The notes under the pieces were generated by a model. It worked only from the letters and a program-made list of their open reading frames with translations. It was not told the DNA's origin and did no database searches. A program made the translations under genes and the position numbers. From Candidatus Woesearchaeota archaeon (GTDB lineage Archaea; Nanobdellota; Nanobdellia; Woesearchaeales; WJIZ01), in contig WJIZ01000029.1 in assembly GCA_014729995.1 (NCBI GenBank), positions 12,779 to 76,778 on the forward strand: DNA of 64,000 nucleotides, read 5' to 3'. Position 1 is the stretch's first letter; each line of letters starts with the position of its first letter. Below, piece by piece: positions 10,568 to 36,100 of this stretch.

Positions 10568-11050
10568 ATGGATTATAAAAACATCTTCTCTTTTGATATA
10601 AAGTGGAGCTCTAAGACAGTCAGCTTATTCATCTTTCTATTAATCCTACCTAATTTCTTAGGCATGATCAATCTTTCGACAAAAACAGGCTTCAAGATTC
10701 ATTTCTTTCAGTACGCAGTTTTTCTAGCAGCAATCATATATGGACCAAAAGGCGGTCTGTTATCAGGATTCGTCGGCTCAACATACTCCGCTTTTATAAT
10801 GCACAATCCCTACATCGCTGTAGGCAACGCAATATTGGGCTTCTTCACAGGGCTTTTCATAAGATATGGCTCAAAAACAATCTTGGCAGTTCTTTTAGCA
10901 TATATTATACAGCTGCCTTGGCTTATACTAACAGATTATTTTTTAGTGCATCTTCCTATGTCTTTTATAATGCCCTTAATCATGGCATTATTTTTCTCAA
11001 ATATAGTCTGGGCAATCGCAGCTCATTATACAGCCAAGTTAGTAAAATGA
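10568..11050 (+). CDS. Small polytopic membrane protein resembling an ECF-transporter S-component.
   Basis: About 5 TM helices. HFFQYAVFLAAIIYGPKGGLLSG motif typical of ECF substrate-capture subunits. Its stop overlaps the next start as ATGA. Confidence 0.5.
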   Translation: MDYKNIFSFDIKWSSKTVSLFIFLLILPNFLGMINLSTKTGFKIHFFQYAVFLAAIIYGPKGGLLSGFVGSTYSAFIMHNPYIAVGNAILGFFTGLFIRYGSKTILAVLLAYIIQLPWLILTDYFLVHLPMSFIMPLIMALFFSNIVWAIAAHYTAKLVK

Positions 11051-11436
11051 AGCCTGATTTTGAAAAATATTCTTTAGCATTAATCAAAAACAATAAGGTA
11101 GTCTATTCTTCAGACAAACCGGGCTTAAGACCTCTTGTCAACTGTATAGCTAAAAATAAGGAAAAAAAGGATTGCGCTCTTCATGATAAGGTTATAGGAT
11201 TGGCAGCCGCTAAATTAGTCTTTAATTCAGGTATTGCTGAGAAAATTGTAACAAGTATTATTTCAAAGCCTGCTTTTGACTTTCTGAAAGATAAGCTTGT
11301 TGTTGAATATGATGAAATAGTCAAAAACATCCTCAACACAGAAAGAAAAGTTATCTGCCCTATGGAGAAGAAAGCACTGGAACTCGATGAAGCTTCTTTT
11401 TTGAGACATGTGAACAAGATATTTAATCAAGAATAA
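11047..11436 (+). CDS. Conserved hypothetical protein of about 129 aa.
   Basis: ATG at 11047 overlaps the upstream stop. The ORF-track entry 10918.. is a 5' extension inside the previous gene. No family assigned with confidence. Confidence 0.5.
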   Translation: MKPDFEKYSLALIKNNKVVYSSDKPGLRPLVNCIAKNKEKKDCALHDKVIGLAAAKLVFNSGIAEKIVTSIISKPAFDFLKDKLVVEYDEIVKNILNTERKVICPMEKKALELDEASFLRHVNKIFNQE

Positions 11437-11460
11437 ATTATTATTGTTTTATAGAAAAAC

Positions 11461-11556
11461 CAACAACATAGCTGGCTGACGGAGGTTGCCCCCTTCGGGG
11501 TGTCAGCGAGCATTTTTGCTAAGCAAAAATGCGACAGCCCATGTTGTTGTTGTTGG
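11461..11556 (+). ncRNA. Candidate structured RNA element with a three-way junction. An outer stem CAACAACAU/AUGUUGUUG encloses a CUGAC-stem hairpin capped by a cUUCGg tetraloop and a second hairpin GCAUUUUUGC-UAA-GCAAAAAUGC.
   Basis: Perfect and near-perfect complementarity read directly from the sequence. A T-rich tract follows at 11556-11575. Confidence 0.35.
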
Positions 11557-11639
11557 TTTTTCTTTTGAAATTATAATCTTATTATTTCCTCAAATCAAAA
11601 CCTATTTAAACAATCTGCATAATTTAAGCTTAAGCCAAG

Positions 11640-11746
11640 GAAAGTATCGTGAAATTCGGTCGCTGGCCCGCAGCCGTTAAAGCCGGAATACTTGCATATT
11701 ACAAGGGTCGAGGATTGTCCGCAGGATTTCTGCGAACATTTTTAAC
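11640..11746 (+). promoter_or_regulatory. Candidate cobalamin (B12) riboswitch-like leader. It resembles the compact AdoCbl-variant class.
   Basis: AGGAAAGUAUCGUGAAAUUCGGUC resembles the conserved GGGAAAG..CGUGAAAUUCG core of Cbl riboswitches. It is followed by GGCCCGCAGCCG, a degenerate B12 box (consensus CCCGCCACUG). A terminal hairpin CGCAG-GAUUU-CUGCG sits 12 nt before the ATG. The context is an ECF S-component plus DUF4430. Confidence 0.4.
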
Positions 11747-12505
11747 ATGTCTAAAAAGCAAAAGCTTAAGCTAAAAAAGAAGAAGAAAGAACAGAAAGAA
11801 AAGCAGAAGCTCTCAACCGAGCAGAGATTAGCAATAAAAGCTGTGCAAAAGCAGCTTCAATTATTGAAACTAAGGGAGCTTTTATTATTGATAGGCTTCA
11901 CAACAGGCGGAGCATTGTTAAGAATTCCGATGCAAGCTATCCCAAGTGCAGAGCCATTAACATTCTTCGCAATACTATCAGGCTGGCTTTTTGGTAGGAA
12001 AAAGGGAGCAGCTGTAGGAGCTTCTTCATTATATATCTCAAATTTCTTCATGTTCGGCGGACAAGGTCCCTGGAGCATTTTGCAGGCAATAGGCTTTGGC
12101 ATAGCGGGCTGGCTAGGGGGCTTGTTAAGAAAAAAAGCATCATACTTAGAAGTGATGATAATTACAATAATTGCTACATTGGTTTTTGAGGTAATTATGA
12201 ACGCTTTCACCCCACTTATGGTGGGCTCATCTATTTTCATGGCTTTTGCGCTTGCATTGCCTTTCACGCTGATACACCTTGCTTCCAACTTCATTTTCGC
12301 TTTAGTATTACCTTCAACAAAAAAATTTGTCGAAAAGACAGGAGGCTTCAATGAAAAGGATATTTGTGCTAGTATTCTTGATAAGTATAATATTAGCACT
12401 AAGCTTGATTGGATTAAGAAATTTAGAAGAAGACCGAAGCACGGGCAAGGCAACATTGATAATAAGGACGATAGGAAGCACAGCACAGGAACAGGTGGAG
12501 CTTGA
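11747..12505 (+). CDS. Membrane protein resembling an ECF-transporter S-component, with a Lys-rich N-terminal tail. The 3' end overlaps the next gene in another frame.
   Basis: Five to six TM helices (GFTTGGALLRIPMQAIP..., GFGIAGWLGGLL). No ecfA or ecfT in the window. Confidence 0.5.
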   Translation: MSKKQKLKLKKKKKEQKEKQKLSTEQRLAIKAVQKQLQLLKLRELLLLIGFTTGGALLRIPMQAIPSAEPLTFFAILSGWLFGRKKGAAVGASSLYISNFFMFGGQGPWSILQAIGFGIAGWLGGLLRKKASYLEVMIITIIATLVFEVIMNAFTPLMVGSSIFMAFALALPFTLIHLASNFIFALVLPSTKKFVEKTGGFNEKDICASILDKYNISTKLDWIKKFRRRPKHGQGNIDNKDDRKHSTGTGGA

Positions 12506-12710
12506 AGGAAAAAATGTGTTGGAATATCTTCAGGAAAAACACGATGTAAGGATATCCGGAAAGCAGCTTACATGCATAGATGATGTCTGCGCAAAAAAAG
12601 GCTTTTGGTGGAAATTTTTTGTAAACGATAAGCTTATTTTAAGCTCGGCTGATAGGTATTATCCAAAAAATGGGGATATAATCTTATTAGATTATGGTGA
12701 TGAAGAATGA
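12351..12710 (+). CDS. DUF4430 (transcobalamin beta-domain-like) secreted or anchored protein.
   Basis: GGAGG SD 8 nt upstream of ATG 12351. Signal/TM MKRIFVLVFLISIILALSLIG. DUF4430-like C-terminus WWKFFVNDKLILSSADRYYPKNGDIILLDYG. Confidence 0.55.
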   Translation: MKRIFVLVFLISIILALSLIGLRNLEEDRSTGKATLIIRTIGSTAQEQVELEGKNVLEYLQEKHDVRISGKQLTCIDDVCAKKGFWWKFFVNDKLILSSADRYYPKNGDIILLDYGDEE

Positions 12711-14086
12711 AGAAAATCGGACTTTTTTTACTGTTAATATTAATGCCCTTCGCCTACGCACTTAAAACAGGTGTAGTAATCGATGATGGAGCTAAAATCT
12801 ACAAAGGCTGTGTAGATATCAACAGCCAAGACTCTGCTTACGATGTATTGAAAGCTTTCGATAGCCAGAGAGACGAGCTAAAATTGACAATCGATGGCGG
12901 CACCTTAGGCACGCCAGCATTTCTAAGGGCAGTAAATGGTAAAGAAGGCGGCTGTGCAGATAATGATATAAACAACTGTCTAAAATGGAGAGGCTGGAAT
13001 TTTTGGATAGCAGATAATGATAACCACTTCACAGAGCCGCCTGAACTTTCTCCAGGATGGGGGATGGCTATCAGCGATTATAAGGTTGAAGCACAAGATG
13101 TGATAGGCATTAATTTTGCGATTACAGAATATAATGCAGACTTTTCAACAAAATCCAAGCCAGAAAAGCCAGATTACATAAAATATGATGGTCTATGCAA
13201 TAAACTAAAAATTAAGGAAATAGATATTGAAGTAGATGGCGACAATGAACATATAGACGAACAAGGCGGAGAAATAGAAGTAAAATCAGGTTCAGAGATT
13301 GAGATAGAAATTGAGCTTAAAAACTTATATGAAGATATTGAAATAGAAGATGTATATATCAAAGCAGAAATTGAAGATATTGATGCAGGGGAAGACTTAA
13401 CAAAAGATACAGGAGAAGAGTATATCCTTCCTCAAAGAGATGAGACTTTCAGGTTGGGTTTCAACCTGCCCCAGATTCTAGAAGACGATGAGTACGAGCT
13501 TCTTATAAATATATTTGGTGTGGATGAATACAATCTTGAATATTTTGAAGAGCTTAATTATGATATAGAAGTTGATAAAGAATCTCACGAGATAGTATTA
13601 GATGATATAGAATTTAAAAAAGATATCGGCTGCAGGCAAACTGCATTAATTACAATAACTATCGCAAACATTGGAGAGAATGATGAGGAAATCGATATTA
13701 CTGTTTCTGAGTCTGGAAAAATCTATGAAACAGACACTTTTTTTCTGGAAGAAAGCGATAAAACACAGAAATATTACACACTTGATATAAATGAGCCCGG
13801 AAATCATGTCATAAGAATAGAAGCAGAATACAGCGGAAAGGCGATATACGAAAGCATAATAATAGAGAAAGAAAAATGCGATAAAAAAGAACAGAATGCA
13901 GTCAGTTTAGAGCAGACCGATGAAAAGGACCATAAAGAAGAAATCCAATTGGAATTCACAGACACAAGGAACCGGAACACAGCCCAAACAAAAACACGGG
14001 GCAGTATTTTGCCTTATGTTTTATTAGTGCTCTTCTTAATAGGAATAGCCACGGCATTGTTAGTTATAATTACACTATCTCGATAA
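12707..14086 (+). CDS. Surface protein with a signal peptide, a DUF4430-like N-domain, acidic Glu/Ile/Asp repeats and a C-terminal TM anchor.
   Basis: MKKIGLFLLLILMPFAYA. ..WNFWIADNDNHF..GMAISDYKVEAQDVIGINF. EIEIEIELKNLYEDIEIEDVYIKAEIEDIDAGED. C-terminal ILPYVLLVLFLIGIATALLVII. Confidence 0.6.
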   Translation: MKKIGLFLLLILMPFAYALKTGVVIDDGAKIYKGCVDINSQDSAYDVLKAFDSQRDELKLTIDGGTLGTPAFLRAVNGKEGGCADNDINNCLKWRGWNFWIADNDNHFTEPPELSPGWGMAISDYKVEAQDVIGINFAITEYNADFSTKSKPEKPDYIKYDGLCNKLKIKEIDIEVDGDNEHIDEQGGEIEVKSGSEIEIEIELKNLYEDIEIEDVYIKAEIEDIDAGEDLTKDTGEEYILPQRDETFRLGFNLPQILEDDEYELLINIFGVDEYNLEYFEELNYDIEVDKESHEIVLDDIEFKKDIGCRQTALITITIANIGENDEEIDITVSESGKIYETDTFFLEESDKTQKYYTLDINEPGNHVIRIEAEYSGKAIYESIIIEKEKCDKKEQNAVSLEQTDEKDHKEEIQLEFTDTRNRNTAQTKTRGSILPYVLLVLFLIGIATALLVIITLSR

Positions 14087-14135
14087 CCATTCCATAATAA
14101 CAAATTTTATATAATATATCATCTGAAGGCTGGTT

Positions 14136-15122
14136 ATGAGGGTGGTTTTTGCATTAATGTTCTTAGTTCTTTCCAGTTTTTGCTGTGCCCAGAATTTGGA
14201 TATAAGCGTTTATGAGGAGACAGGCCAGGGAAGAAGATTCGGCAATATCAATGCAGAGCCTGGCCAGACAGTGGAATTCTTCATCCATGCGGAGAACCGC
14301 AACCAGGACAGGAGCGACGATTCACAGGACATAGAGGACATCGAGATAAAAGCCACTATAGAAGAAATTGATGAAGGCGAGGATATCGAAGAGGAATATG
14401 ATGATTTTGACCTCAATGCCAAACAGGATGAAAGCCTCTCTTTCAGGCTGAAAATCCCTTTAAGGGTAAGGGATGCCCTTTATGACATTAATATCGAGTA
14501 CGAGTATGAGGAAGATGGCAAAAAATTCTCAGGCAGCACAGATTATTTTCTGGATGTGGACAAGGAAAAGCAAAATCTTTATCTTAAAAAACTCGGATTC
14601 CGGCCGGCAAGCATAAAATGCAATGAAATTTCATACCTTGAGATAGGGCTCATGAACCTTGGCACTTCAGACGCGGGCATTGTAATAACAGCCAGCAATG
14701 ACGAGCTTGATTTCACCCTCAGAAGGGCATCCTTTCTTGAAGCTTACCCTGGGGATGATATATACGAAAACAGGTTCGCCATTAAAGTCCCAAAGCAGGC
14801 CGAAAGCAAGCCCTACAAATTTGAAATCACAGTTAACGACAATAATGGTAATCTTCTGAAAAGGGAAACAGCCGAGCTTGATGTTAGCTGCCTTTCCGAA
14901 AAAACCGAATCTTCAGGGCAGCAGCAACAGCAGCAGAAGCAACAGCAGCCAGAGGAAAAAGAAGAGGATATAATCCCATCAGAACAGCCTAAGCTACAGC
15001 AGCGAGAGGAAATAATAGTGGAAAGCAGCAGCAGCTTTCCGGTTTATTTAATCATCCTGTTTGTCTTAATAGCCATTGCAGCAGTATTGTTGATAATATT
15101 GCTAAATAAAAAGAAACCATAG
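14136..15122 (+). CDS. Paralogous surface protein: signal peptide, acidic repeat module, poly-Gln linker and C-terminal TM anchor.
   Basis: MRVVFALMFLVLSSFCCAQN. IEEIDEGEDIEEEYDDFDLNAKQDESLSFRLKIP parallels a module in the previous gene. QQQQQQKQQQPEEKEE. C-terminal FPVYLIILFVLIAIAAVLLIILL. Confidence 0.6.
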   Translation: MRVVFALMFLVLSSFCCAQNLDISVYEETGQGRRFGNINAEPGQTVEFFIHAENRNQDRSDDSQDIEDIEIKATIEEIDEGEDIEEEYDDFDLNAKQDESLSFRLKIPLRVRDALYDINIEYEYEEDGKKFSGSTDYFLDVDKEKQNLYLKKLGFRPASIKCNEISYLEIGLMNLGTSDAGIVITASNDELDFTLRRASFLEAYPGDDIYENRFAIKVPKQAESKPYKFEITVNDNNGNLLKRETAELDVSCLSEKTESSGQQQQQQKQQQPEEKEEDIIPSEQPKLQQREEIIVESSSSFPVYLIILFVLIAIAAVLLIILLNKKKP

Positions 15123-24668: not shown

Positions 24669-26210
24669 ATGGCTTTCAAAGGAGGCATTCACCCGAAATA
24701 CAATAAGATAACTGCAGGAAGCAAGATAGAAAAAGCAGGCCTTCCCGGGAAAATAGTCCTGCCGATGAGCCAGCATGTGGGAAAGCCCTGCGAGCCAATA
24801 GTGAATATAGGAGACTATGTCAGGACAGGCCAGAAAATTGCTGAAAGCGACGCATTCGTCTCCGCCCCTATACATTCTTCTGTTTCAGGCACAGTAAAGT
24901 CTGTCGAAGCCCTCCCCCATCCAATAACAGGAAATCCTGTAAAATCAGTAACTATAGAATCAGACGGCAAGGATGATAAGGTGGAGATGAGGGAAAGGCA
25001 GTACGAAAACCTTTCGAATGAAGAGCTGAAAGAAATAATCAGGGAAGCGGGAATTGTCGGTCTTGGCGGAGCAGCTTTTCCTGCGCACGTAAAGTTAAGC
25101 CCGCCTAAGGACAAGAATATAGACTGCCTGCTAATAAACGGGGCAGAATGTGAGCCCTTTCTGACTACAGACCACAGGCTGATGGTAGAAAGAGCAGACC
25201 AATTATTGGAAGGCATCAGGATTATAAGGAAAATACTCGAAACAAAAGATGTTTTCATAGGCATAGAGAAAAATAAGTCCGACGCTGTCAAATTGTTGTC
25301 CGAAAAATGCAAAGGCCAGAATATCAGGGTAAAGGCTTTGCATGCCAAGTATCCGCAGGGCAGCGAAAAAAAGCTTATTTATGCCGTAAACAGAAGAAAA
25401 GTCCCTGCAGGCGGTCTTCCCATGGATATTGGCTGCGTTGTCCAGAATGTTGGCACTTGTTTGGCTGTTTTTGAAGCTGTTGCGCTCTCCAAGTCGCTCT
25501 ATGAAAGGGTCATCACAGTAACAGGCAGGGTAAACAGGCCTAAAAATATTTTAGTTAGGATAGGCTCATCAGTAAAGGAAGCCATAGAAGAGGCTGATAA
25601 CTATAAAGGCCAGCCAAAAAAGATCATCATGGGCGGACCGATGATGGGATTTGCGCTTCCCACAGATGAGCTGCCGGTAATTAAGGGCACGTCAGGAATA
25701 ATTGTCTTCAATAAGGTTGATATGGATGAGAAAAGGCAGGAAATAGAATGCATAAGGTGCGGTAAATGCGTCCAGAAATGCCCCATGCATCTTCATCCCT
25801 CATTACTGGCGAGATACGCACAAAAAGGAAAATTCGGATTGGCAGAAAAGACATTCGCCATGGACTGTTACGAGTGCGGCTGCTGTGCTTTCATCTGTCC
25901 TTCCCATATCCCCTTAGTCCACTGGATAAGGTATGCTAAGTCAGAGATATTGAGGAAAAGAGTGGAAAGGAAGAAAAAAGAAAAAAAGTCAAAAGAGGCA
26001 AAAGGCAGTGAGCATGCAGAAAAAGGGAGAAAAACAGGGGAAAGTTCAGAAAAGAAAGAAAGTGAAGAAGAAAAGAAGGAAGAAAAACAAGCCAGCAACG
26101 TCCCTGAATCAGGAAAGGAGAAAATAGGTGCCGAAGAGAGCAATGAAAAGCCGCAAGCGGCTGAAGAATACAAAAAAGAAGATAATCCAGAAGAAGACAA
26201 AAAAGAATAA
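24669..26210 (+). CDS. rnfC: Rnf electron-transport complex subunit C, with a ~90-aa Lys/Glu-rich C-terminal tail.
   Basis: GGIHP N-terminus. GLGGAAFPAHVK. INGAECEPFLTTD. Two 4Fe-4S CxxCxxC motifs. Confidence 0.9.
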   Translation: MAFKGGIHPKYNKITAGSKIEKAGLPGKIVLPMSQHVGKPCEPIVNIGDYVRTGQKIAESDAFVSAPIHSSVSGTVKSVEALPHPITGNPVKSVTIESDGKDDKVEMRERQYENLSNEELKEIIREAGIVGLGGAAFPAHVKLSPPKDKNIDCLLINGAECEPFLTTDHRLMVERADQLLEGIRIIRKILETKDVFIGIEKNKSDAVKLLSEKCKGQNIRVKALHAKYPQGSEKKLIYAVNRRKVPAGGLPMDIGCVVQNVGTCLAVFEAVALSKSLYERVITVTGRVNRPKNILVRIGSSVKEAIEEADNYKGQPKKIIMGGPMMGFALPTDELPVIKGTSGIIVFNKVDMDEKRQEIECIRCGKCVQKCPMHLHPSLLARYAQKGKFGLAEKTFAMDCYECGCCAFICPSHIPLVHWIRYAKSEILRKRVERKKKEKKSKEAKGSEHAEKGRKTGESSEKKESEEEKKEEKQASNVPESGKEKIGAEESNEKPQAAEEYKKEDNPEEDKKE

Positions 26211-26211
26211 G

Positions 26212-27183
26212 ATGCCGGAAAAAAAATTTATTGTGGAAAGTTCGCCCCATATATTTTCTTCTAATTATAAATACAAAGTAATGTGGCTTGTTGTGCTGGC
26301 TTTGCTGCCTGCCGCAATTATGGGGGTCATTAACTTTGGTGCGCGTGCCCTCCTCGTTATCATAGTAGCCTTATCAGTCTCCATACTTACTGATGCACTT
26401 TTCGAAAAGCTGAAAGGAAAGCAGATGGTTGTTGAGCAGGGAGCCGCGGTTGTTACCGGCCTGCTGCTCGGAATGATTCTTCCCCCTGCAGTTCCGCTGT
26501 GGGTTCCTGCATTAGGCAGCTTTACCGCGATAGCGCTGGCAAAGCACGCTTTTGGCGGTGCGGGCATGACCATCTTCAATCCTGCGTTGGTAGGAAGGGC
26601 ATTCCTTGTTGCGAGCTTCCCTGCAATAATGACGAGATACACATGGCCAGACGGCATCACATCAGCATCCCCATTGGGCATGCTGAAGGCTGAAGGCTAC
26701 ACACATGCTCTTTCCTTTTTCGGGAGCAGGTTAGCAGCTTACAAGGCAATGTTTTTCGGGAACATAGCAGGCAGCATAGGTGAAACTTCTGCTTTGGCTC
26801 TGCTTATCGGAGGCTTGTTTCTTGTACTGGTGAAAGTTATTGACTGGAAGATTCCAGCTGTCTATATTGGCACTGTATTTGTCCTGACATGGCTGTTTGG
26901 CCAAGATCCCATTTATCATATTTTAGGAGGCGGCCTTTTCATCGGGGCATTCTTCATGGCAACAGCTTATGAAGGCATGCCCATAACCCCTAACGGAAGA
27001 GTCTATTTTGCCTTGGGCCTGGGCATATTGACAGTCGTGATAAGGTTATGGGGCGGCTATCCCGAGGGCGTAAATTACTCCATACTGCTGATGAATGCAG
27101 CCTCTCCCCTGATTGAAAGATTGACAATAAGAAAGCCTTTTGGCTATACGAAAAAGAAAAAAAATGCTGAATCAAATGCTTAA
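26212..27183 (+). CDS. rnfD: Rnf subunit D.
   Basis: VESSPH near the N-terminus. Polytopic membrane protein. ATG at 26212 lies directly after the rnfC stop. Confidence 0.85.
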   Translation: MPEKKFIVESSPHIFSSNYKYKVMWLVVLALLPAAIMGVINFGARALLVIIVALSVSILTDALFEKLKGKQMVVEQGAAVVTGLLLGMILPPAVPLWVPALGSFTAIALAKHAFGGAGMTIFNPALVGRAFLVASFPAIMTRYTWPDGITSASPLGMLKAEGYTHALSFFGSRLAAYKAMFFGNIAGSIGETSALALLIGGLFLVLVKVIDWKIPAVYIGTVFVLTWLFGQDPIYHILGGGLFIGAFFMATAYEGMPITPNGRVYFALGLGILTVVIRLWGGYPEGVNYSILLMNAASPLIERLTIRKPFGYTKKKKNAESNA

Positions 27184-27760
27184 ATCAACACTTGTATTGT
27201 CTTTAGTGTGCTTAATAGCCGCGGCTTTGCTCGGCACAGCCTATATTTTTACAGAGCCTGGAATAGAAGAGCAGAAAGAAGCCGCGCTAAAGGAAAGCCT
27301 GGGCCAGGTTCATACAACAGCAGATGATTTTGAAGCAAAAGACGGCTATTTTGTAGCATTAAAAAACAGCAAAATAATAGGTTATGCGGCTGTTGCAGAG
27401 GCACAGGGCTACGGCGGCACTATAAAAATTCTTGCAGGCATAGACACGGAAAAGAAGCTGACAGGAATAAGGATAATGGAGCATGAGGAAACACCCGGCA
27501 TGGGGGCAAGTGCCCTAAAACCCGAATTTTATTCCCAGTTTAGCGGTCTGCCAGCAGATAAAATAGCCTTAAGAAGAAATGGCGGAAAGATCGATGCAAT
27601 TACTGGCGCCACTATAACAAGCTCTGCTGTTATAGATGCAGTAAAGCAGGCTCTCGAGTCAGAGCTAAGCAGCTTAAAATTCAATAATTCTATTGAAGAA
27701 GCTGATTCTGTAACTTACGCTGTTCCGGGCAATAAATCAGGAGAGATAAAAAATGGCTGA
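27164..27760 (+). CDS. rnfG: Rnf subunit G (FMN-binding).
   Basis: N-terminal TM. GYGGTIKILAGID...ETPGMGA. ITGATITSSAV FMN-attachment motif. Confidence 0.85.
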   Translation: MLNQMLKSTLVLSLVCLIAAALLGTAYIFTEPGIEEQKEAALKESLGQVHTTADDFEAKDGYFVALKNSKIIGYAAVAEAQGYGGTIKILAGIDTEKKLTGIRIMEHEETPGMGASALKPEFYSQFSGLPADKIALRRNGGKIDAITGATITSSAVIDAVKQALESELSSLKFNNSIEEADSVTYAVPGNKSGEIKNG

Positions 27761-28550
27761 AGATGATGAAGAAGAGGTAGAAGAAGAGCCTGAGCTGCTT
27801 CCGAAAGCATTCAAGCAGAAAGTTAAGGCTGTTTGGGCTGTTTTTATGAGTTACTTCAATGAATTCAGCAAGGGAATAACTAAGATAAACCCTATCTTTG
27901 TCATGGCTCTCGGCTTATGCCCGACATTGGCTGTCACTACCAGCCTGGACAATGCTGTCGGCATGGGATTTGCCACCACATTTGTCCTGCTCAGCTCAGC
28001 TGTATTTGTTTCCTCTATAAGAAAAACAGTCCCTTCCAATGTAAGGATTCCTGTTTTCATTGTTATAATTGCTACATTCGTAACCATAGCACAGCTTTTC
28101 ATCAGGGCATTTTCAGCCGAACTGAACAGGGCATTGGGAATATTCCTTCCTTTGATAGTTGTCAACTGTGTAATCCTTGGAAGGGCAGAAAGCTTTTCAT
28201 CAAGAAACAGCATATTAAGGAGCATGCTTGATGCTCTTGGTATAGGAGCAGGCTTTTCGCTGGCTTTATTATTGATAAGCAGCATAAGGGAGCTGCTTGG
28301 CACAGGGGAGCTTTATCTTTTCGGGAACAATCTTCTGAATTTAAGCTGGCTTTTTAATCCGATGCTCGCATTCATATTAGCTCCCGGTGCTTTGCTTACA
28401 ATGGGATTATTGCTCGCTTTCTTCAACTGGCTTGGCAACATTGATTTTAAGAAGCAGTCAGCGCATGTTGAAGAGCACAATGGCGATAATGCAGCCGAAA
28501 AGGCAGAAGGGGAAAGCGAAGAAGAAAAAAAGGAGGAAAAGAAAGGATAA
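27753..28550 (+). CDS. rnfE: Rnf subunit E, with acidic N-terminal and C-terminal tails.
   Basis: ALGLCPTLAVTTSLDNAVGMG and LPLIVVNCVILGRAE, typical of RnfE/NqrD. Confidence 0.85.
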   Translation: MAEDDEEEVEEEPELLPKAFKQKVKAVWAVFMSYFNEFSKGITKINPIFVMALGLCPTLAVTTSLDNAVGMGFATTFVLLSSAVFVSSIRKTVPSNVRIPVFIVIIATFVTIAQLFIRAFSAELNRALGIFLPLIVVNCVILGRAESFSSRNSILRSMLDALGIGAGFSLALLLISSIRELLGTGELYLFGNNLLNLSWLFNPMLAFILAPGALLTMGLLLAFFNWLGNIDFKKQSAHVEEHNGDNAAEKAEGESEEEKKEEKKG

Positions 28551-28563
28551 TTAAATATTCAAA

Positions 28564-29142
28564 ATGGAAAACCTGATAGCAATCCTGATAAGCATGATTT
28601 TCGTAAATAATTTCATACTCACCAAATTCCTCGGCTTATGCCCTTTTTTCGGTGTATCAAAAAAGACCGGAAATGCTGTCGGCATGGGATTTGCAGTAAT
28701 CTTTGTGATGGGAATAGCTTCCGCAACAAGCTGGCTTCTTTATACCTTTGTGCTCGCTCCCCTAAGCCTTGAGTTTCTCCAGATAATAACTTTCATACTT
28801 ATAATAGCTTTCCTTGTACAGCTTGTTGAAATATTCATAAAAAAGTATTCGGATTCCCTGCATAAGGCTTTGGGAATATACCTTCCCCTGATCACCACCA
28901 ATTGTGCTGTATTGGGTGTGGCTTTCCTTAATATACAGGAAGGATATTCATTTTTAGGCAGCCTAGCCGGCGGATTAGGCGCAGGCATAGGCTTTATGCT
29001 GGCTCTGCTGCTGATGTCTGGCATAAGGGAAAGGGTTGAGCTGACGGATGTCCCAAATCCTTTCAGGGGATTGCCGATTGCATTTATAATCGCTTCCCTC
29101 ATGTCGCTGGCATTTTTGGGATTTTCAGGTATGTTACAATGA
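28564..29142 (+). CDS. rnfA: Rnf subunit A.
   Basis: FLGLCPFFGVSKKTGNAVGMG and LPLITTNCAVLG, typical of RnfA/NqrE. Confidence 0.85.
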   Translation: MENLIAILISMIFVNNFILTKFLGLCPFFGVSKKTGNAVGMGFAVIFVMGIASATSWLLYTFVLAPLSLEFLQIITFILIIAFLVQLVEIFIKKYSDSLHKALGIYLPLITTNCAVLGVAFLNIQEGYSFLGSLAGGLGAGIGFMLALLLMSGIRERVELTDVPNPFRGLPIAFIIASLMSLAFLGFSGMLQ

Positions 29143-29993
29143 TGGTATTGCTGTATTCAATAATTGTACTCGGGCTGATGGGGACTGCTGCAGGCCTTAT
29201 CTTAGCTTATGCTTCAAAGAGGTTTGCAGCCTGGCAGGATCCAAATGTAAATCAGATAGAGGAAGTTCTTCCAGGCGTTAACTGCGGGGCATGCGGCTAT
29301 GCCGGCTGCCACGCTTATGCACAGGCTGTTGCATCAGGAAAAGCGCCCATAGACCTGTGCAGGCCCGGCGCGAATAAAGTGGCTGCGCAAATCGGGGAAA
29401 TAATGGGCCAGGAAGCAGGAGAAAAAGAGCCAAAGGTAGCAAAGAGGAAATGTAACGGAGGAAATAAAGAAGCGAAAAAGAAGTTTGATTATGGCAGCAT
29501 ACAGACCTGCAAGGCAGCCTCTTTGGTAAATAACGGCTACAAGCAGTGCTCCTACTCCTGCCTGGGCTTTGGAGATTGCGCTTTAGTCTGCCCTGTGGGT
29601 GCAATAAACATGGATGAAAACAACCTCCCACAGATTGACATGGAAAAATGCATAGCATGTGAAAAATGCGTGATTGAATGCCCTCGCAGCATATTAGAGA
29701 TGGTTCCTAAAAAGGCGCGCGTTCATGTCAGGTGCAGGTCAAAAGATTCAGCAAAAAATGTCGTAAAAGCATGCTCAGTGGGCTGCATTGCCTGCAGGAA
29801 ATGCGAAAAAGAATGCCCTTTTGATGCCATACATGTTATTGATAATTTAGCTGTGATTGATTATTCTAAATGCACCAGCTGCGGCAAGTGCGTTAAAGTA
29901 TGCCCCCACAGCATAATTGAGCAGGAGCCTTTGCCTAAAAAGCCCGGAAAAAAGAAGAAAGAAGGCGAAGAAAAGAACGAAGAAGCAGACTGA
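29139..29993 (+). CDS. rnfB: Rnf subunit B (ferredoxin-like).
   Basis: N-terminal TM. LPGVNCGACGYAGCHAYAQAV. Several CxxCxxCxxxCP 4Fe-4S motifs. Confidence 0.85.
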   Translation: MMVLLYSIIVLGLMGTAAGLILAYASKRFAAWQDPNVNQIEEVLPGVNCGACGYAGCHAYAQAVASGKAPIDLCRPGANKVAAQIGEIMGQEAGEKEPKVAKRKCNGGNKEAKKKFDYGSIQTCKAASLVNNGYKQCSYSCLGFGDCALVCPVGAINMDENNLPQIDMEKCIACEKCVIECPRSILEMVPKKARVHVRCRSKDSAKNVVKACSVGCIACRKCEKECPFDAIHVIDNLAVIDYSKCTSCGKCVKVCPHSIIEQEPLPKKPGKKKKEGEEKNEEAD

Positions 29994-30109
29994 TTCTTAT
30001 GTAACTACCGTAAAGTAATATATATAAAAAATCGAAATATTTATATATAATTAATTTCAAAAATATACTCAATCCTATAATAATGTGGATTTATATATTT
30101 TATTTGCAA

Positions 30110-33100
30110 ATGAAAAAGAAGGTGGGCCTTATGAATTCTAGAATAATTTTTTTAGTAGTTTCAATGCTGTTTGCCGCAGGGATTGTTTCAGCTGTCAACT
30201 GCTGGCAGTATGATGATTCGCAGTCAGACTGTGAAGCTGCAGAAGACTGCCAATGGGAGCAGGATGACTGGGGAGGCTGGTGCCAGGAAAAAGGTTGCTG
30301 GCAATTATGGGATCAAACAGACTGTACTAATTCTACTGATGATCTAAATTGTTTATGGAGATCTTCAACTTCTTCTTCTGGTTGGTGTGAACAAACTTCT
30401 TGTTATTCATGGGAAGGAACCAATGCCGCAACATGTGTTAATAATTCTGCAAATAAAAATTGTCAATGGCAAAATCAATGTTTTGGATACAATCAAAATG
30501 TAAACTGTCCTTCTCTTGGAATTGATGAATGTAGTAACGTAACTGGTTGTACTTGGGGTATGTGTGAAGAAGTAGGCTGTTGGAAATATGATTATACCGA
30601 TCAAGACACATGTCAAGCACAAACAGGTTCTATGGGTAATTCTTGTCGATGGGATAATAATGGAGAATATTGTTATGAACTAGGTTGTTGGGATTATGAT
30701 AATACTAATTATACTGCTTGTGTAAACAATGCTAATGGTTTAGCTTGTCAATGGAATGCTGCTTATCAAAGATGTGAAGAAATTCAATGTTGGAAGTTTG
30801 ATTATACTAATTCATCTGTATGTACAACAGATGCTCTAAATAATTATAACCTAACCTGTACTTGGGATGGACAATATTGTATGAATTCTCAATGTTCTAA
30901 TTTGAATACTCAATCTAATTGTGATACTACACAAGGATGTTCTTGGAAAACACAAACTGGAGGAGGATGGTGTGAAGAAGCACAATGTTGGATCTTCGAC
31001 CAATGGAACGGTGGAACAGAACAACAATGTAATGGTACAAATATAGAACCAGGTAATGATGCATATTCTTTTAATCTAAGTTGTGAATGGGATAATGGTG
31101 CTTGCTACCCTAATGTAGATGAAAACTGTTCTACATTCACAACAGAATCTGGATGTATGGATACATATTATTGTTGGTGGCAATGTTCTGACTGGGACAA
31201 TCAATCAACTTGTACATGTAATGATCCTAAAGATTTAGGAGAAACATATGATGATAACTTCTTCCAAAAATGGAATCCTGGATGTTATATATTCGATATA
31301 AATTATGATTTATGTAATGCTACTTATGCAGGAACAAATGCAAGCTACTGCGAGAATGACACTTCTCTTAATATTCCCTATGACTGCTCATGGCAAAATG
31401 GCACAGGCCAGGAAGAATGCCTTGCTGTTTCGGCATGCCACGATGTTATTGGCTGCCAATTTTCGGCACAGCTTGGCACAGGTCTTTGCGATCCCGAGCC
31501 TGGACATGCATTTCAAAGCCATATAGAGAATGAGGGGCTCAACTGCACAATGATAAACAACACGCAGTTATGCAATAATATACCTGCATTATCTACCTGC
31601 TGTGAATGGAAAGAAGGAACATGCAAGGAAAAGCTTGGCAAAGAATGCTGGGAAAACATGGATAAAAAGATGGAAGATGATTTTGATGGAATTAAATCAT
31701 GTGCAGATGCAAGTATCTTTGCAAACCCAGAAAAAAAATGTAATGAGATGGGAGGTTATCCTTTATTTATGCCTTGTAAATGGAATTCTTCTATAAGTAA
31801 ATGTGAATTTAAATCAACTCAGATATTTGGAGATGCAAGCCAGACTTTATCCCTTATAGAAAATCAGAAAAATTGTGAAGCTGCTGGTGGAAAATGGGTT
31901 CAGGAATGGTACTGCGAGGGAAACAGAAGTGTTCCAGCAGGAAGATGTGAACAGAAAGCAGACGAAGAAAATAATTGTGACGTTGCATGTTTCGCTTGTG
32001 AATTCAAATTCGATGGTACAAACTTTACTAATATAACTAATGCAAAAGCTACATGTTATGGATCAGATTTAGGTTATTGTGAATTTACTGCAGATTCAAC
32101 AGCAAAAAACGGACTAGGAACTTGCAGAGCAAAAGAAGAATTCAAGGCAGGTATTGCTTCTGATTGTACTTCTGATTGTGGAAGTTGTACTTATATGGGT
32201 AATCCTAACGCTGCTTCAAACTTTGATGGTAACAAACAATATTCAAATTGTAATTCTCCAAGTTGTTATTGTGGACAAGCATATGAATTTGGAGATGTAA
32301 AATGTAAATGGGTAAATGATAATACTAGTAATCAAGGAGGATATTGTGTAGATTCAACAACAAAAACCTGCCAGGATAGCTGTGACAGGTGTTATTCAAA
32401 ATCTGACTGTAATAATGATGGAAGAATGGCTTTCAATGCAATAGGAAGTTGTGAATGGGTAACAGAATCTGGAGAAATATCTACCAGTGCTACAGAAGGT
32501 ATCTGCAGAAAGAAAGGAAGCGGAGAAATCTGTTGGGATGGAATTGATAATGATGCAGACGACCTAATTGATTGTGCTGATAATAATTGTTATTCAGATA
32601 GTTTCTGTGGTTTTGTTTCAGGAGACTGTCCTAGTATTACAACCGCAGCAGTATGTAATGCAACTCAATTAGATAATGGATTAAATTGTACTTGGAAATC
32701 TGATGCATGGGGTAGCTTCTGTGACTTCCCAGGATCAGATTGTTATGAAAGAGATGGAACAAACCAAACCTATTGTGAAGCAGCAAGCGGATGTCAATGG
32801 GGTTCTGACTCTATGGGAGGTTCAGGATGGTGTGAACAAGATTGGGATTCCGCAAACGATTGTTGGAGCATGATAACTGAAGCTACTTGTACTGGTGGTT
32901 GTGTATGGACTAATGATACTTGGTGTACTCAAAATCCTACAGATCAATGGTGTCAAGACTTTGGAGGATGGTGTGATCCTGCAGCATTCGCTCCTAAGAA
33001 CTGCTGGAACAGAGATGATACTAATCAATCATGGTGTGAAAATTTAACTGGTTGTTTCTACACAAACTCAACAGGAATGTGTATGGAACAGGGATGTTGG

Positions 33101-36100
33101 AATTATGATTCTAACGTAACTGCATGTAATCAACAAGATAATTGTCAATGGAAACAGGACGATTGGCAACAATGTGAAGTAGACTGGAGTGTAAATTGCT
33201 GGTTATATGACGATAATGAAACACAATGTGATACTGCACCAGAATGTACTTGGTTTGATCAAGGCAGCAATTGGGCATATTGTGGCAACAAATTTGATGT
33301 TTGCTGGAATTACGGTAGTGATTCTAGTTCATGTGATTCTGATTCTAATTGTTACTGGACTGATTGGAATAGTTGTGAAGCTATATGTAGAGATGAAAAT
33401 ACTTATGGTACTGAATCAAGCTGTAACGCTGTAGATGGATGTCATTGGAAATCAGGATGGTGTGAAGATACTAGCATGGGTGGAAGCAGTAGTGGAGTAG
33501 ATTGTGGAAGTAAAGATGAAAGCACTTGTATTGCTGCAACCGAGTGTAAATGGAAAAATCCTGGATGGTGTGATCCTATAGGTTTCTCTGGAGGATCAGC
33601 AGCAAATTCAGCAGGAAGTGGTAATAATGTAGGTTCTGAATGTTGGAAATATGATGGAGAAGAAGCATTATGTACTGACGCTTCTACTATAAACATTAGT
33701 TGTTCATGGATGGACGAACCTTGGCCACATTGTGAACCTGACTGGGGTTCTTCTAATTGCTGGGATCGTAATGAAACTACTTGTAATGAAAGTTGCTGGT
33801 GGAGTGAAGAAGGATGGTGTACTAATGCTAATGAACAATGTAAAATGAATTCTTCTTTATCAGAAAATTCAACTTTATGTGATGCCAATAGTGCTTGTAA
33901 TTGGGCTACATTTAATGAGGGATGTAGAGAAGATTGGAACTCATTAGATAGTTGTTATCAAATTTGGGATCAAGATGATTGTACAAATGCAACAAATAAT
34001 CAGACATGTAAATGGGAAACTTATTATGATCAATTTGATGGTCAAGAAAGAACGGGATGTAGACCTAAATTCGAAGCTTGTCGTGATTTCAGTTTAAGTT
34101 CTTCAGAATGTAATGCTTTAGACGGTTGTTTCTGGAATGAATTTATGGGTATGTGTGACGCTGTTTGTTTCAATATGTCTTTAACAGAACAACAATGTGG
34201 TGCAATCGCTGGTTGTACTTTTGGAGGAGGAAGCTGTGAACCTTCACTATTTACAAAGCAAACTGCAGGAGAATGTACTGGTGCTGGAGGTAAATGGTTA
34301 AACGGATGGTGTAATCCTCCTGGACAAGGAAAAATGTTTGCAGGTATGGATATGGGTCCACCAGTACCAATAGTTACAGAAAATTGTAATTCTAATGGAG
34401 AAGTGGCTTATGCAGATATTTGTGGTGTTGGAATTAAAGATACAGGTAATAGTTTTATTTTTGGTTCACAAACTGCCGATTTTAGTAATGTAGGAGTATG
34501 TAATGGTCAGAATGTTATAACCTTTGGATCAAGTAACTTTGGTATGGGAAGTGCAAACCAAGGTCAGGGAACAAGCCCTGTAAAATACTATGTATATCTT
34601 GATACAGATGGATCAACAACAGGAGGATGTTCGCCAGTAAATAATAAATCAATGAAAGGTTATGAATTCTTCCTTAAGCTTGAATCAACATATAACAGTA
34701 CTCTAGAAAAATCAACAGAAACATTTACTGCAAAGAGATGCAGTTTATCTGGATCTACTTGGAAGATTGCAGATATCAGCCTAAGTACATGGAAACAACA
34801 AATGTGTTCCATGGCAGGAGGGCCTTTAATAGCTGTAACAAAAACAGATCTAGAAAAATTCCCTGAATTATATGATTCAGAAAAAGACGTAAGAGTTTAT
34901 GTGGCAATGGCTGACAGCAGTCGTAATGCAACAGTACCTTATGATGAAGCAGGACCTGGTTGGTATACACCAGGAGCTGTTGATTTCAGTTTAGAAAGTC
35001 TATTCGGAATGGGATCTGATACAGCTAAGAATGAAGATATCATGAAGAAAGGTTATGTTGAACATGAAGACTGTTATTTAACAGGTGATGAAGATAAGGA
35101 TGGAAATGCAGATTGTGATGATTGGGACTGTCAGTATGCTTCTGGTTGTGAAAGTTCAGGAGTTAATGCAGACAACTATACAGATACTTCAATGCCAAAA
35201 ATTACAGGAATTAAGATTGAAGAATACACAGATTCTGCACTAATCATGTACTCAACAAATAAACCAACAAATGGAACACTAGCATTCTATCATAACGATT
35301 CAACATGCGCAACAACTAACGCAACAATCTATGATAAAGGAGTAACCACAACTTCCATGAGAAATCATAAACTATGGCATGATGGACACATCTACAACGA
35401 TGGTGGAGTTAGTAGTTTAGATTATGCTTTAAACAGTAGTACAGATTACTATTACAAATTGAAAGTTTGTGATTCAGGAGGAAAATGTTCTGTAAGTAAA
35501 TGTTCAAGTTTCAAAACAGCTGGAACAAGATGTGCTTATTGTAACTTCGTTACATTGATTAACTCTCCATCAGGATGGACTGTTTGGTATGATCTTAATG
35601 CAAATGGAATATACGAACACGAACAAGGTAATGTTTGTGGTCCAAAAGCTGGAATGAAAACAAACTATACTGAAGGAAGAAAGGCTAACATTAAGATGAC
35701 AGAAGATGATAGTGTTGTTGTTATGGAATTCCTGAATGTAACTTTAACAAAAACAGGACTTACATCTAAAACAAGAAAAATCTCAGAATCTGGATCATTG
35801 ATCCATGATACAACTGAAGATTATGTTGGTATGCCTTCCGCAACAAGGGATAAGATTATCAATAACCTGCATCCTGAACTCTGCAGGATAACCATTCCGA
35901 CAACAGGAGGAGATTGCTCTAAGCTTTATCATTGTGATGACAATGGCGACAATTGCGTGGACAGGACAAGCGAGGAAGGGGCTGATTTGGTTTCTTCTAC
36001 CTCAACAAGCTGTACGTGGACTATACCGTATTGTGAGTTCTCAACATGGGATGCAGATGGAAATCCGTCAGGAGGCACAACAACAACTACTTCATCTTCA

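Follow-up and report, generated by a model that had tools for sequence, protein, structure and literature searches.

A candidate vitamin B12 capture and uptake operon behind an AdoCbl-II riboswitch in a Woesearchaeote and related DPANN archaea

We analysed a stretch of 64,000 nucleotides (nt) of contig WJIZ01000029.1 (assembly GCA_014729995.1, positions 12,779 to 76,778 of the forward strand) from Candidatus Woesearchaeota archaeon, called the window below, and found in it a four-gene unit that probably serves a DPANN archaeon as an operon for capturing and taking up corrinoids (vitamin B12). The unit begins 46 nt 3' of an AdoCbl-II (cobalamin) riboswitch aptamer (window positions 11620-11701, + strand) and encodes on the same strand a DUF6580 S-component-like membrane protein of 252 residues (11747-12505; PF20221, 34.3 bits, cut-off 27), a small DUF4430 protein of 119 residues from its ATG (12351-12710; PF14478, 26.4 bits, cut-off 23.8), a 459-residue surface protein (12707-14086) and a 328-residue stalk-only paralogue of the latter (14136-15122). 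The two surface proteins have no Pfam match; the longer was assigned with AlphaFold2 (AF2) models, Foldseek and hhalign, and the shorter by BLASTP to the longer. The genes abut or overlap, so that a single transcript 3' of the riboswitch is plausible. Three of the four proteins are assigned by family or fold, and the linkage of their genes across DPANN species is strong and tolerates rearrangement. The 252-residue and 459-residue proteins are identical to the NCBI entries GF323_03630 and GF323_03640 (Candidatus Woesearchaeota archaeon).

A first-pass annotation, made from the letters alone, had proposed a surface module for vitamin capture at this place. Its link to B12 through the riboswitch, the small DUF4430 protein, the fold of a second such domain and the membrane anchors stand, but the unit holds one protein with a head domain instead of two and one S-component instead of two. 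All five open reading frames (ORFs) on which it was based, the four of the unit and one at 10568-11050 (here S-comp160), are present on the + strand, as are the peptides it quoted (WWKFFVNDK..GDIILLDYG, WNFWIADND, IEEIDEGEDIEEEYDD and IEDIDAGEDLTKD).

The aptamer is the sole Rfam match in the 64 kb (RF01689, 42.3 bits, gathering cut-off 36.5, E 9.4e-7 over the whole window), and what had been described as a riboswitch-like leader is a genuine AdoCbl-II match. Six independent related loci, which were fetched first, gave no Rfam riboswitch match; a riboswitch confined to the window was considered and was overturned by closer relatives (L075 and L076, with the same core) and by a survey in which one genome per GTDB species was scanned with the DUF6580 profile, giving 61 loci whose neighbours were counted with local hidden Markov models (HMMs). 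A sequence profile found the riboswitch core just 5' of DUF6580 in many of these species-level loci, and the riboswitch is present in 13 of the 61. The Rfam cut-off is also passed by 13 further copies in 12 DPANN loci (36.9-47.0 bits). We built our own covariance model from 14 copies and searched the window and 65 other loci with it: the window aptamer scored 82.3 bits (11623-11701), and 17 copies in all were found at E <= 2e-11 in the window and 15 loci, the remaining 50 loci having none. After the riboswitch the next long ORF lies on the same strand in 17/17 copies, and the local HMMs identified a DUF6580 gene another 45-550 nt downstream in every one. A scan of metagenomes with a DNA pattern matched 15 loci, 11 of archaeal type and four bacterial look-alikes; nine of the 11 archaeal-type copies directly precede DUF6580, one precedes a small acidic protein of the kind that also precedes DUF6580 in locus L044, and one lies on a contig that ends before its downstream gene can be identified. 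Counting the window separately, at least 25 related archaeal loci have a cobalamin riboswitch directly 5' of the operon, as the window does.

The structure of this RNA is supported by covariation. In the 17 archaeal copies the covariation score is 0.233, compared with 0.068 in shuffled alignments (0/500 shuffles reach 0.233) and at most 0.111 in controls with the register slid; compensatory changes occur in eight pairs (1/500 shuffles), and 82% of the pairing cells can pair vs 72.6% in shuffles (0/500). The hairpin formed by alignment columns 24-28 with 45-49 shows double changes in all five of its pairs. Because the model served to fit the alignment, this test is somewhat biased towards the structure.

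The riboswitch transcript has a putative archaeal promoter and a conserved expression platform. The promoter is a box resembling the B recognition element (BRE) and the TATA box, aaaacCTATTTAAAc, at 11598-11612 (+ strand), recognized by its composition and spacing across copies: lining up 25 DPANN copies at the invariant AAGGAAAG brings out a BRE-like stretch rich in A and a TTTATATA-type box at -36 to -29. With the usual archaeal TATA spacing, transcription would start about 5 nt before AAGGAAAG. The fixed spacing of the TATA box implies that these RNAs probably do not include the outermost Rfam helix; for this outer helix (P1) the window can pair UAAUUU with AUAUUA with one mismatch, and no conserved P1 is seen in relatives. 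The platform (11702-11746, + strand) reads GGGTCGAGGATTGTCC...GGATTTCTGCG, followed by a run of five T and the ATG. Its motif, GGAUCGWGGAG-nn-GUCC...GAYUUCUC, is kept in nearly all archaeal copies and ends before a start codon that has no Shine-Dalgarno sequence. Transcription and translation in archaea are unlike those in bacteria, and the conserved platform could reveal how riboswitches regulate in an archaeal setting.

Three observations on this riboswitch group stand apart from the operon itself. An acidic protein of 155-175 residues without transmembrane (TM) segments (..KFDYSTNLIDKQ.DYSELFSYL..ERFDWFKIF..) is inserted between riboswitch and DUF6580 in L052 (2469-2936), L053 (2396-2866) and L044 (2220-2747; L078 contains this sequence too). 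In L044 a second riboswitch copy belongs to the gene of the acidic protein itself. The four bacterial look-alikes (L077, L081, L083, L085) have near-identical AdoCbl-II cores behind a bacterial-type TTGATA-17-TATAAT (sigma-70-type) promoter and upstream of a 503-residue protein without assigned function, which raises the question of transfer of an aptamer subtype between bacteria and DPANN archaea.

Two proteins of the unit carry domains of the type found in B12 carriers. The small protein encoded at 12351 belongs to DUF4430, as the first-pass annotation had recognized. That annotation had also taken it to be secreted; its sequence opens with a 19-residue hydrophobic segment with no obvious cleavage site, and it looks like a protein held at the membrane through its uncleaved N-terminal helix, not a freely secreted one. 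The second domain is the head of the 459-residue protein (12758-13201, + strand). A head-only AF2 model built from seven orthologues (pLDDT 80.7, pTM 0.77) was compared with the PDB by Foldseek, and the top 18 matches were all beta-domains of transcobalamin, intrinsic factor or haptocorrin, or the bacterial DUF4430 structure 3U7Z. The best was 5NP4, the human transcobalamin beta-domain with cyanocobalamin (E 1.1e-4, TM-score 0.66), and the first unrelated structure followed at E 0.13. Pfam DUF4430 was matched weakly by the heads of three of five orthologues (best E 0.0036) and by eight of 35 related heads (best E 7.9e-5), with no other family recurring. Alignment of the head family (35 sequences) to the small DUF4430 proteins (42 sequences) with hhalign gave a probability of 94.8% and E 5e-8 over 87 columns. 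The modelled head thus has the transcobalamin beta-domain fold, and by profile comparison it appears homologous to the small DUF4430 proteins; the assignment rests on fold and profile evidence because the window's own sequence has no Pfam DUF4430 match. The locus would thereby provide a prokaryotic example of the transcobalamin beta-domain serving as a capture head on the cell surface.

Behind the head, the full-length AF2 model of the 459-residue protein (pLDDT 66), which begins with a signal peptide before the alpha/beta head, has two all-beta domains (13205-13870, + strand; residues 167-290 and 296-388), a disordered linker and a C-terminal helix, the TM anchor (14009-14080, + strand). A fold search with this model returned matches to the stalk alone, and the head was found only with the head-only model. 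The stalk matches were tandem beta-sandwich proteins such as RbmA and transglutaminase C-terminal domains (E about 1e-9); acidic Glu/Ile/Asp repeat stalks, as described earlier, give way in the model and the fold search to two folded domains resembling immunoglobulin (Ig) and fibronectin type III (FnIII) domains. The 328-residue protein likewise has a signal peptide, two beta-sandwich domains, a Q/E-rich linker and a C-terminal TM anchor. Both surface proteins therefore have the membrane anchors that had been expected of them, consistent with surface display, and the two are indeed paralogues (BLASTP 3e-15); the shorter aligns to residues 188-455 of the longer only. It has no head domain, with about 18 residues before the first stalk domain. 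DUF4430-like N-domains had been claimed for both proteins: the claim holds by fold and profile for the 459-residue protein, while the 328-residue one has none, and the suggested check with PF14478 gave no match for either window sequence.

Stalk-only second genes like that of the 328-residue protein occur in five other loci (L012, L020, L027, L049, L065), and in most stalk proteins a head region is present, 130-185 residues long. In a relative, P0010 (614 residues, from a Logan contig of 2.2 kb), the same two-domain stalk is fused to a solute-binding domain of the Peripla_BP_2 (BtuF/FhuD) type. The stalk seems, from this fusion, to serve generally for the display of binding domains.

The genes of the unit are linked in most of the 61 species-level loci, 60 of which carry DPANN or generic archaeal labels of metagenome-assembled genomes (many being labelled 'uncultured Methanosarcinales', which we take as placeholders); the exception, L073, is labelled Candidatus Peribacteria bacterium. 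A small DUF4430 gene adjoins DUF6580 in 38 of the 61 loci, a stalk protein gene in 43, both in 27 and at least one of the two in 54; of the seven loci with neither, three to four are truncated. The stalk gene lies upstream of DUF6580 in seven loci and downstream in 36, and so the linkage survives rearrangement. In the literature searched we found no description of an arrangement that combines DUF4430, this S-component family and RF01689.

At one of these loci, L012 (937-4941), a protein of 801 residues with prenyltransferase/squalene-cyclase repeats and a DUF4430 protein of 341 residues are encoded just upstream of DUF6580. Prenyltransferase/squalene-cyclase is the fold class of the transcobalamin alpha-domain, and the two proteins together recall the two halves of transcobalamin. 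Like the stalk fusion in P0010, this variation speaks for the B12 reading of the operon.

The stalk proteins could also be ordinary envelope or S-layer proteins that stand next to a B12 transporter merely through synteny and have no role in capture. The 328-residue protein shows a weak match to NF033506, a putative S-layer protein family (31 bits, cut-off 110), many relatives show synteny across the region, whose limits are a phosphoribosyl pyrophosphate (PRPP) synthetase on the upstream side and TrmB on the downstream side, and the stalk module occurs with other heads or with none. We consider this explanation unlikely, because the head of the 459-residue protein has the fold of a cobalamin-carrier beta-domain and is homologous to the adjoining small DUF4430 protein, head-bearing stalk genes adjoin DUF6580 whether they lie upstream or downstream of it, and the abutting and overlapping genes fit a single transcript behind the riboswitch.

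The first gene of the unit encodes the candidate translocator. The DUF6580 protein has six predicted TM helices, a helix rich in Lys at its N-terminus and, at its C-terminus, a conserved tail, GGFNEK.IC. Among its 194 homologues at >= 50% identity, all organism-named ones are labelled Woesearchaeota, Nanoarchaeota or DPANN archaeon. An alignment of 26 DUF6580 proteins (A4) shows the motifs PSAEP, SNFF.FGGQGPW..Q and PF..IH..SN and invariant H177 and C207. The start of the small DUF4430 gene lies inside the coding region of the DUF6580 tail, with an overlap of 155 nt. A frameshift or fusion as the cause of this overlap was rejected: the overlapped tail is conserved in the 26 homologues, and shorter overlaps occur in other loci. 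The overlap is therefore genuine.

No significant match in PDB sequences was obtained for the DUF6580 protein, S-comp160, the small DUF4430 protein or the head profile. With the DUF6580 profile, CbrT was best (E 0.16) and 4HZU_S stood next to it (E 0.17); hhalign of DUF6580 to CbrT gave 87.9% and E 3e-6 over 122 columns. No output domain was found in the DUF6580 protein by a Pfam scan, and we found no paper mentioning DUF6580 in the literature searched.

C207 and GGFNEK.IC in the predicted cytoplasmic tail, together with the Lys-rich N-helix (..QKQLQ..), characterise the DPANN DUF6580 proteins. Neither the tail nor the helix was seen in CbrT (residues 9-158 of 182 compared), 4HZU_S, FolT or S-comp160.

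Cobalamin riboswitches mostly control genes of B12 uptake or synthesis, which counts against the idea that the operon serves a different ligand (some other tetrapyrrole, corrinoid precursors alone or a cofactor of an unrelated kind) and that the riboswitch merely couples its expression to B12 status. The S-component sequence is silent on the substrate, DUF4430 is formally a domain of unknown function, and CbrT carries cobinamide too (PMC5997447). A different ligand is nevertheless quite unlikely, since two independent domains of the DUF4430/transcobalamin-beta type are combined with a cobalamin riboswitch in one operon, and the isolated human transcobalamin beta-domain has been solved with cyanocobalamin (5NP4). 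It is very unlikely that DUF6580, instead of importing, acts in export or as a sensor or receptor built on an S-component fold: such folds are also described for receptors (PMC11109136), the DPANN proteins have unusual conserved cytoplasmic extensions (the Lys-rich N-helix and the C-tail with its invariant Cys) and no ECF (energy-coupling factor) module is nearby, but the protein has no output domain and its gene comes first behind the cobalamin riboswitch, paired with extracellular domains of the B12-binding type, which is the logic of uptake.

For the corrinoid capture and uptake operon itself, we propose the following mechanism. The transcript would start at the BRE/TATA promoter and begin almost directly with the AdoCbl-II aptamer, and with plentiful intracellular cobalamin the aptamer and the downstream platform would shut the operon off. 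The distal head of the 459-residue protein, lifted off the membrane by the two beta-sandwiches and the flexible linker and anchored at its C-terminus, would capture the corrinoid and hand it to the membrane-proximal, N-terminally tethered small DUF4430 protein. The latter would pass it on to DUF6580, the likely translocator, which may work alone in the manner of BtuM or, like CbrT, together with an ECF module whose genes lie elsewhere. The headless 328-residue paralogue is probably a structural partner or scaffold in the envelope, although this is a guess. We infer the order of the relay, the repression at high B12, this scaffold role and the alternatives of solitary and ECF-coupled transport. 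Scavenging of the vitamin from a host, which had been suggested at the outset, is plausible for a DPANN archaeon.

Several observations weigh against this reading. No riboswitch was found in 48 of the 61 related loci. In the expression platform there is no obvious sequestration of a Shine-Dalgarno sequence and no obvious canonical terminator, and a kissing loop between the loop of the aptamer hairpin (AAAUC) and the downstream GAYUU is not supported by covariation: some of its pairs appear compensatory (L040) and others do not (L084, L088, L091), and a local hairpin, GUC/GAY, appears to account better for the variation of the platform. The window's own head sequence does not match PF14478, and the role of the 328-residue protein is guesswork. 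The edge of CbrT over a control is marginal (an unrelated S-component fragment gave 81% and E 1e-5 over 49 columns with hhalign), so that sequence alone leaves the substrate of DUF6580 unfixed, and in alignment A4 nothing in the membrane core of DUF6580 corresponds to the cysteine ligand position of BtuM. Neither an ECF module nor a B12-dependent enzyme was found among the approximately 48 ORFs of the window; in agreement with the statement of the first-pass annotation that no ecfA or ecfT is nearby, the scan of these ORFs gave neither an ABC ATPase nor EcfT.

In 22 of the 61 loci the operon has as its neighbour a divergently oriented gene for a winged-helix protein of the PH0730-like_N/DUF4443 type. 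No locus has both this gene and the riboswitch, 13 have the riboswitch only, 22 the DUF4443 gene only and 26 neither within 3 kb (hypergeometric probability about 0.001, a statistic that ignores phylogeny). The window has no DUF4443 homologue. The exclusive distribution suggests, as a lead only, that riboswitch and DUF4443 protein are alternative regulators of the same operon. It points to a possible protein-based B12 sensor, which, if true, would be a new B12-responsive archaeal transcription factor. The DUF4443 gene was also seen beside the DUF6580 operon in L001, L003, L006, L008 and L012.

More tentatively, the locus may represent a lineage-specific three-tier B12 relay of DPANN archaea, in which the head passes its ligand to the DUF4430 protein and this to a solitary CbrT/BtuM-like S-component without an ECF module, governed, depending on the lineage, by a cobalamin riboswitch at the very 5' end of the transcript with a new type of platform or by a PH0730-like/DUF4443 protein; this fuller version is possible, and we would sooner doubt than accept it as a whole.

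The genomes of DPANN archaea are reduced, and for their cofactors these organisms are believed to rely on hosts or neighbours. In the literature searched we found no description of B12 acquisition by DPANN archaea, no B12 riboswitch in archaea and no paper naming both 'riboswitch' and 'Woesearchaeota'. A census of archaeal riboswitches in 2017 listed only those for thiamine pyrophosphate (TPP), fluoride, rarely flavin mononucleotide (FMN), Mg(II)-I and guanidine-II, and no cobalamin class (PMC5473149). The locus is thus a concrete candidate for an uptake system conserved in dozens of species of Woesearchaeota and Nanoarchaeota, and its leader is one member of an archaeal family of cobalamin riboswitches beyond the classes of that census.

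Upstream of the riboswitch stands a further pair of genes on the + strand, that of S-comp160, a 160-residue S-component-like membrane protein (10568-11050; PF07155 ECF-ribofla_trS, 30.4 bits, cut-off 26.7), and that of a 129-residue TM1506/DUF1893 protein (11047-11436; PF08973, 81.3 bits, E 6e-23), which had been overlooked in the first-pass annotation. The two are translationally coupled through an ATGA overlap, and a spacer of 310 nt separates the DUF1893 gene from the DUF6580 gene. No riboswitch precedes the pair according to Rfam and our own covariance model; a TATA-like box 20-28 nt before the ATG of S-comp160 suggests a leaderless transcript. The pair is a neighbouring, separately transcribed unit and is not counted in the B12 unit. 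Two S-components had been assigned to the vitamin module: both proteins exceed their Pfam cut-offs (PF07155 and PF20221), but only DUF6580 lies in the riboswitch unit, S-comp160 being encoded upstream of the riboswitch. An assignment of a substrate to S-comp160 failed, as NCBIfam gave no match and the protein is only weakly related to DUF6580. S-comp160 also stands upstream of the riboswitch in L075, L056, L022 and L067, and DUF1893 accompanies it in L075 alone of these four (543-1435). Iyer et al. 2011 noted that in Firmicutes and Bacteroidetes TM1506 genes are linked with a membrane protein of five helices, proposed binding of nicotinamide adenine dinucleotide (NAD) or ADP-ribose for TM1506 and held the family to be bacterial (PMC3239186); the archaeal coupling of an S-component-like gene with TM1506 contrasts with a family described as restricted to bacteria (PMC3239186).

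Between the DUF1893 stop codon and the riboswitch promoter (11453-11563) lies a further structured element, two hairpins inside a perfect outer stem of 16 nt (AGAAAAACCAACAACA / TGTTGTTGGTTTTTCT). It has no Rfam match and no second copy in the window or in 91 loci, and it is missing from L075 despite the same gene order there. Elsewhere in the window we observed a complete Rnf-type operon (24669-29993; RnfC, D, G, E, A and B by Pfam), in a Woesearchaeote, and an ORF of 2200 residues (30083-36685). Other neighbours are of archaeal character (diphthamide synthase, a TrmB regulator and an archaeal-type prepilin peptidase), and homologous loci carry proteasome, exosome and Rpb6 genes.

Each part of the operon can be compared with a known system. 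AdoCbl-II, or 'AdoCbl-variant' (RF01689; Weinberg et al. 2010), was first described from marine metagenome sequences only (PMC2864571). The DPANN copies match its aptamer core and hairpins, the window and 13 related copies being above the family cut-off, but they sit in archaeal transcripts behind BRE/TATA promoters and have their own conserved downstream platform, and the outermost Rfam helix is probably not transcribed. The small DUF4430 protein is in the same Pfam family as bacterial DUF4430 proteins, and the modelled head of the 459-residue protein resembles in fold the beta-domains of transcobalamin, intrinsic factor and haptocorrin and bacterial DUF4430 (5NP4, 2PMV, 4KKI, 3U7Z). In contrast to transcobalamin-type carriers, the DPANN domain occurs alone, without an alpha-domain, and appears membrane-anchored, either by an N-terminal tether or as the distal head on a beta-sandwich stalk; the head differs from the carrier beta-domains also by large insertions (about 150 vs about 100 residues) and shares 12-18% sequence identity with them.

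ECF-CbrT of Lactobacillus delbrueckii (PDB 6FNP; PMC5997447), which transports cobinamide as well as B12, and DUF6580 are both small six-helix S-component-type proteins in a B12 context, and the DPANN motifs align with those of CbrT (PSAEPlT / PNVQPVT, SNFF.FGGqGPWt..Q / SNIFLGFGIWTLPQ and LPFtLiHL.SN / LTFDLYHAAGN, DPANN / CbrT). The CbrT fragment, however, matches PF12822 and PF07155 and not PF20221, CbrT requires an ECF module (PMC5997447), of which none was seen in the window, and the DPANN proteins add the Lys-rich N-terminal helix and the Cys-containing C-tail. BtuM of Thiobacillus denitrificans (PMC6072759) also has the S-component fold and is proposed to act independently of ECF in organisms without an ECF module; its homologues are mainly Gram-negative, mostly alpha-, beta- and gamma-proteobacteria (PMC6072759). 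BtuM ligates cobalt via Cys80 in loop 3, whereas the membrane core of the DPANN DUF6580 proteins contains no cysteine and their only invariant Cys, C207, is in the cytoplasmic tail, and BtuM was not among the PDB sequence matches of DUF6580. Transport of the solitary BtuM kind could serve as a model for DPANN archaea with their reduced genomes.

BtuG, one of the surface lipoproteins for B12 in Bacteroides, is a beta-propeller. In BtuH and BtuG (PMC8941943, PMC10404256, PMC13616437), as in the 459-residue protein, a globular domain, there binding B12, is carried on Ig-like domains at the surface; their genes belong to loci for B12 uptake, and they have been proposed to pass the vitamin on outside the cell in a relay toward the transporter, which is the same working logic. 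They are not homologous to the DPANN proteins, are lipid-anchored on the bacterial outer membrane and feed a TonB-dependent transporter. The binding domain of BtuH2 has no known structural homologues, and the idea that BtuH is a DUF4430 protein was ruled out on this ground. Taken as a whole, the DPANN operon is alike in its putative working logic to the BtuG/BtuH surface relay of Bacteroides and to the mammalian carrier chain.

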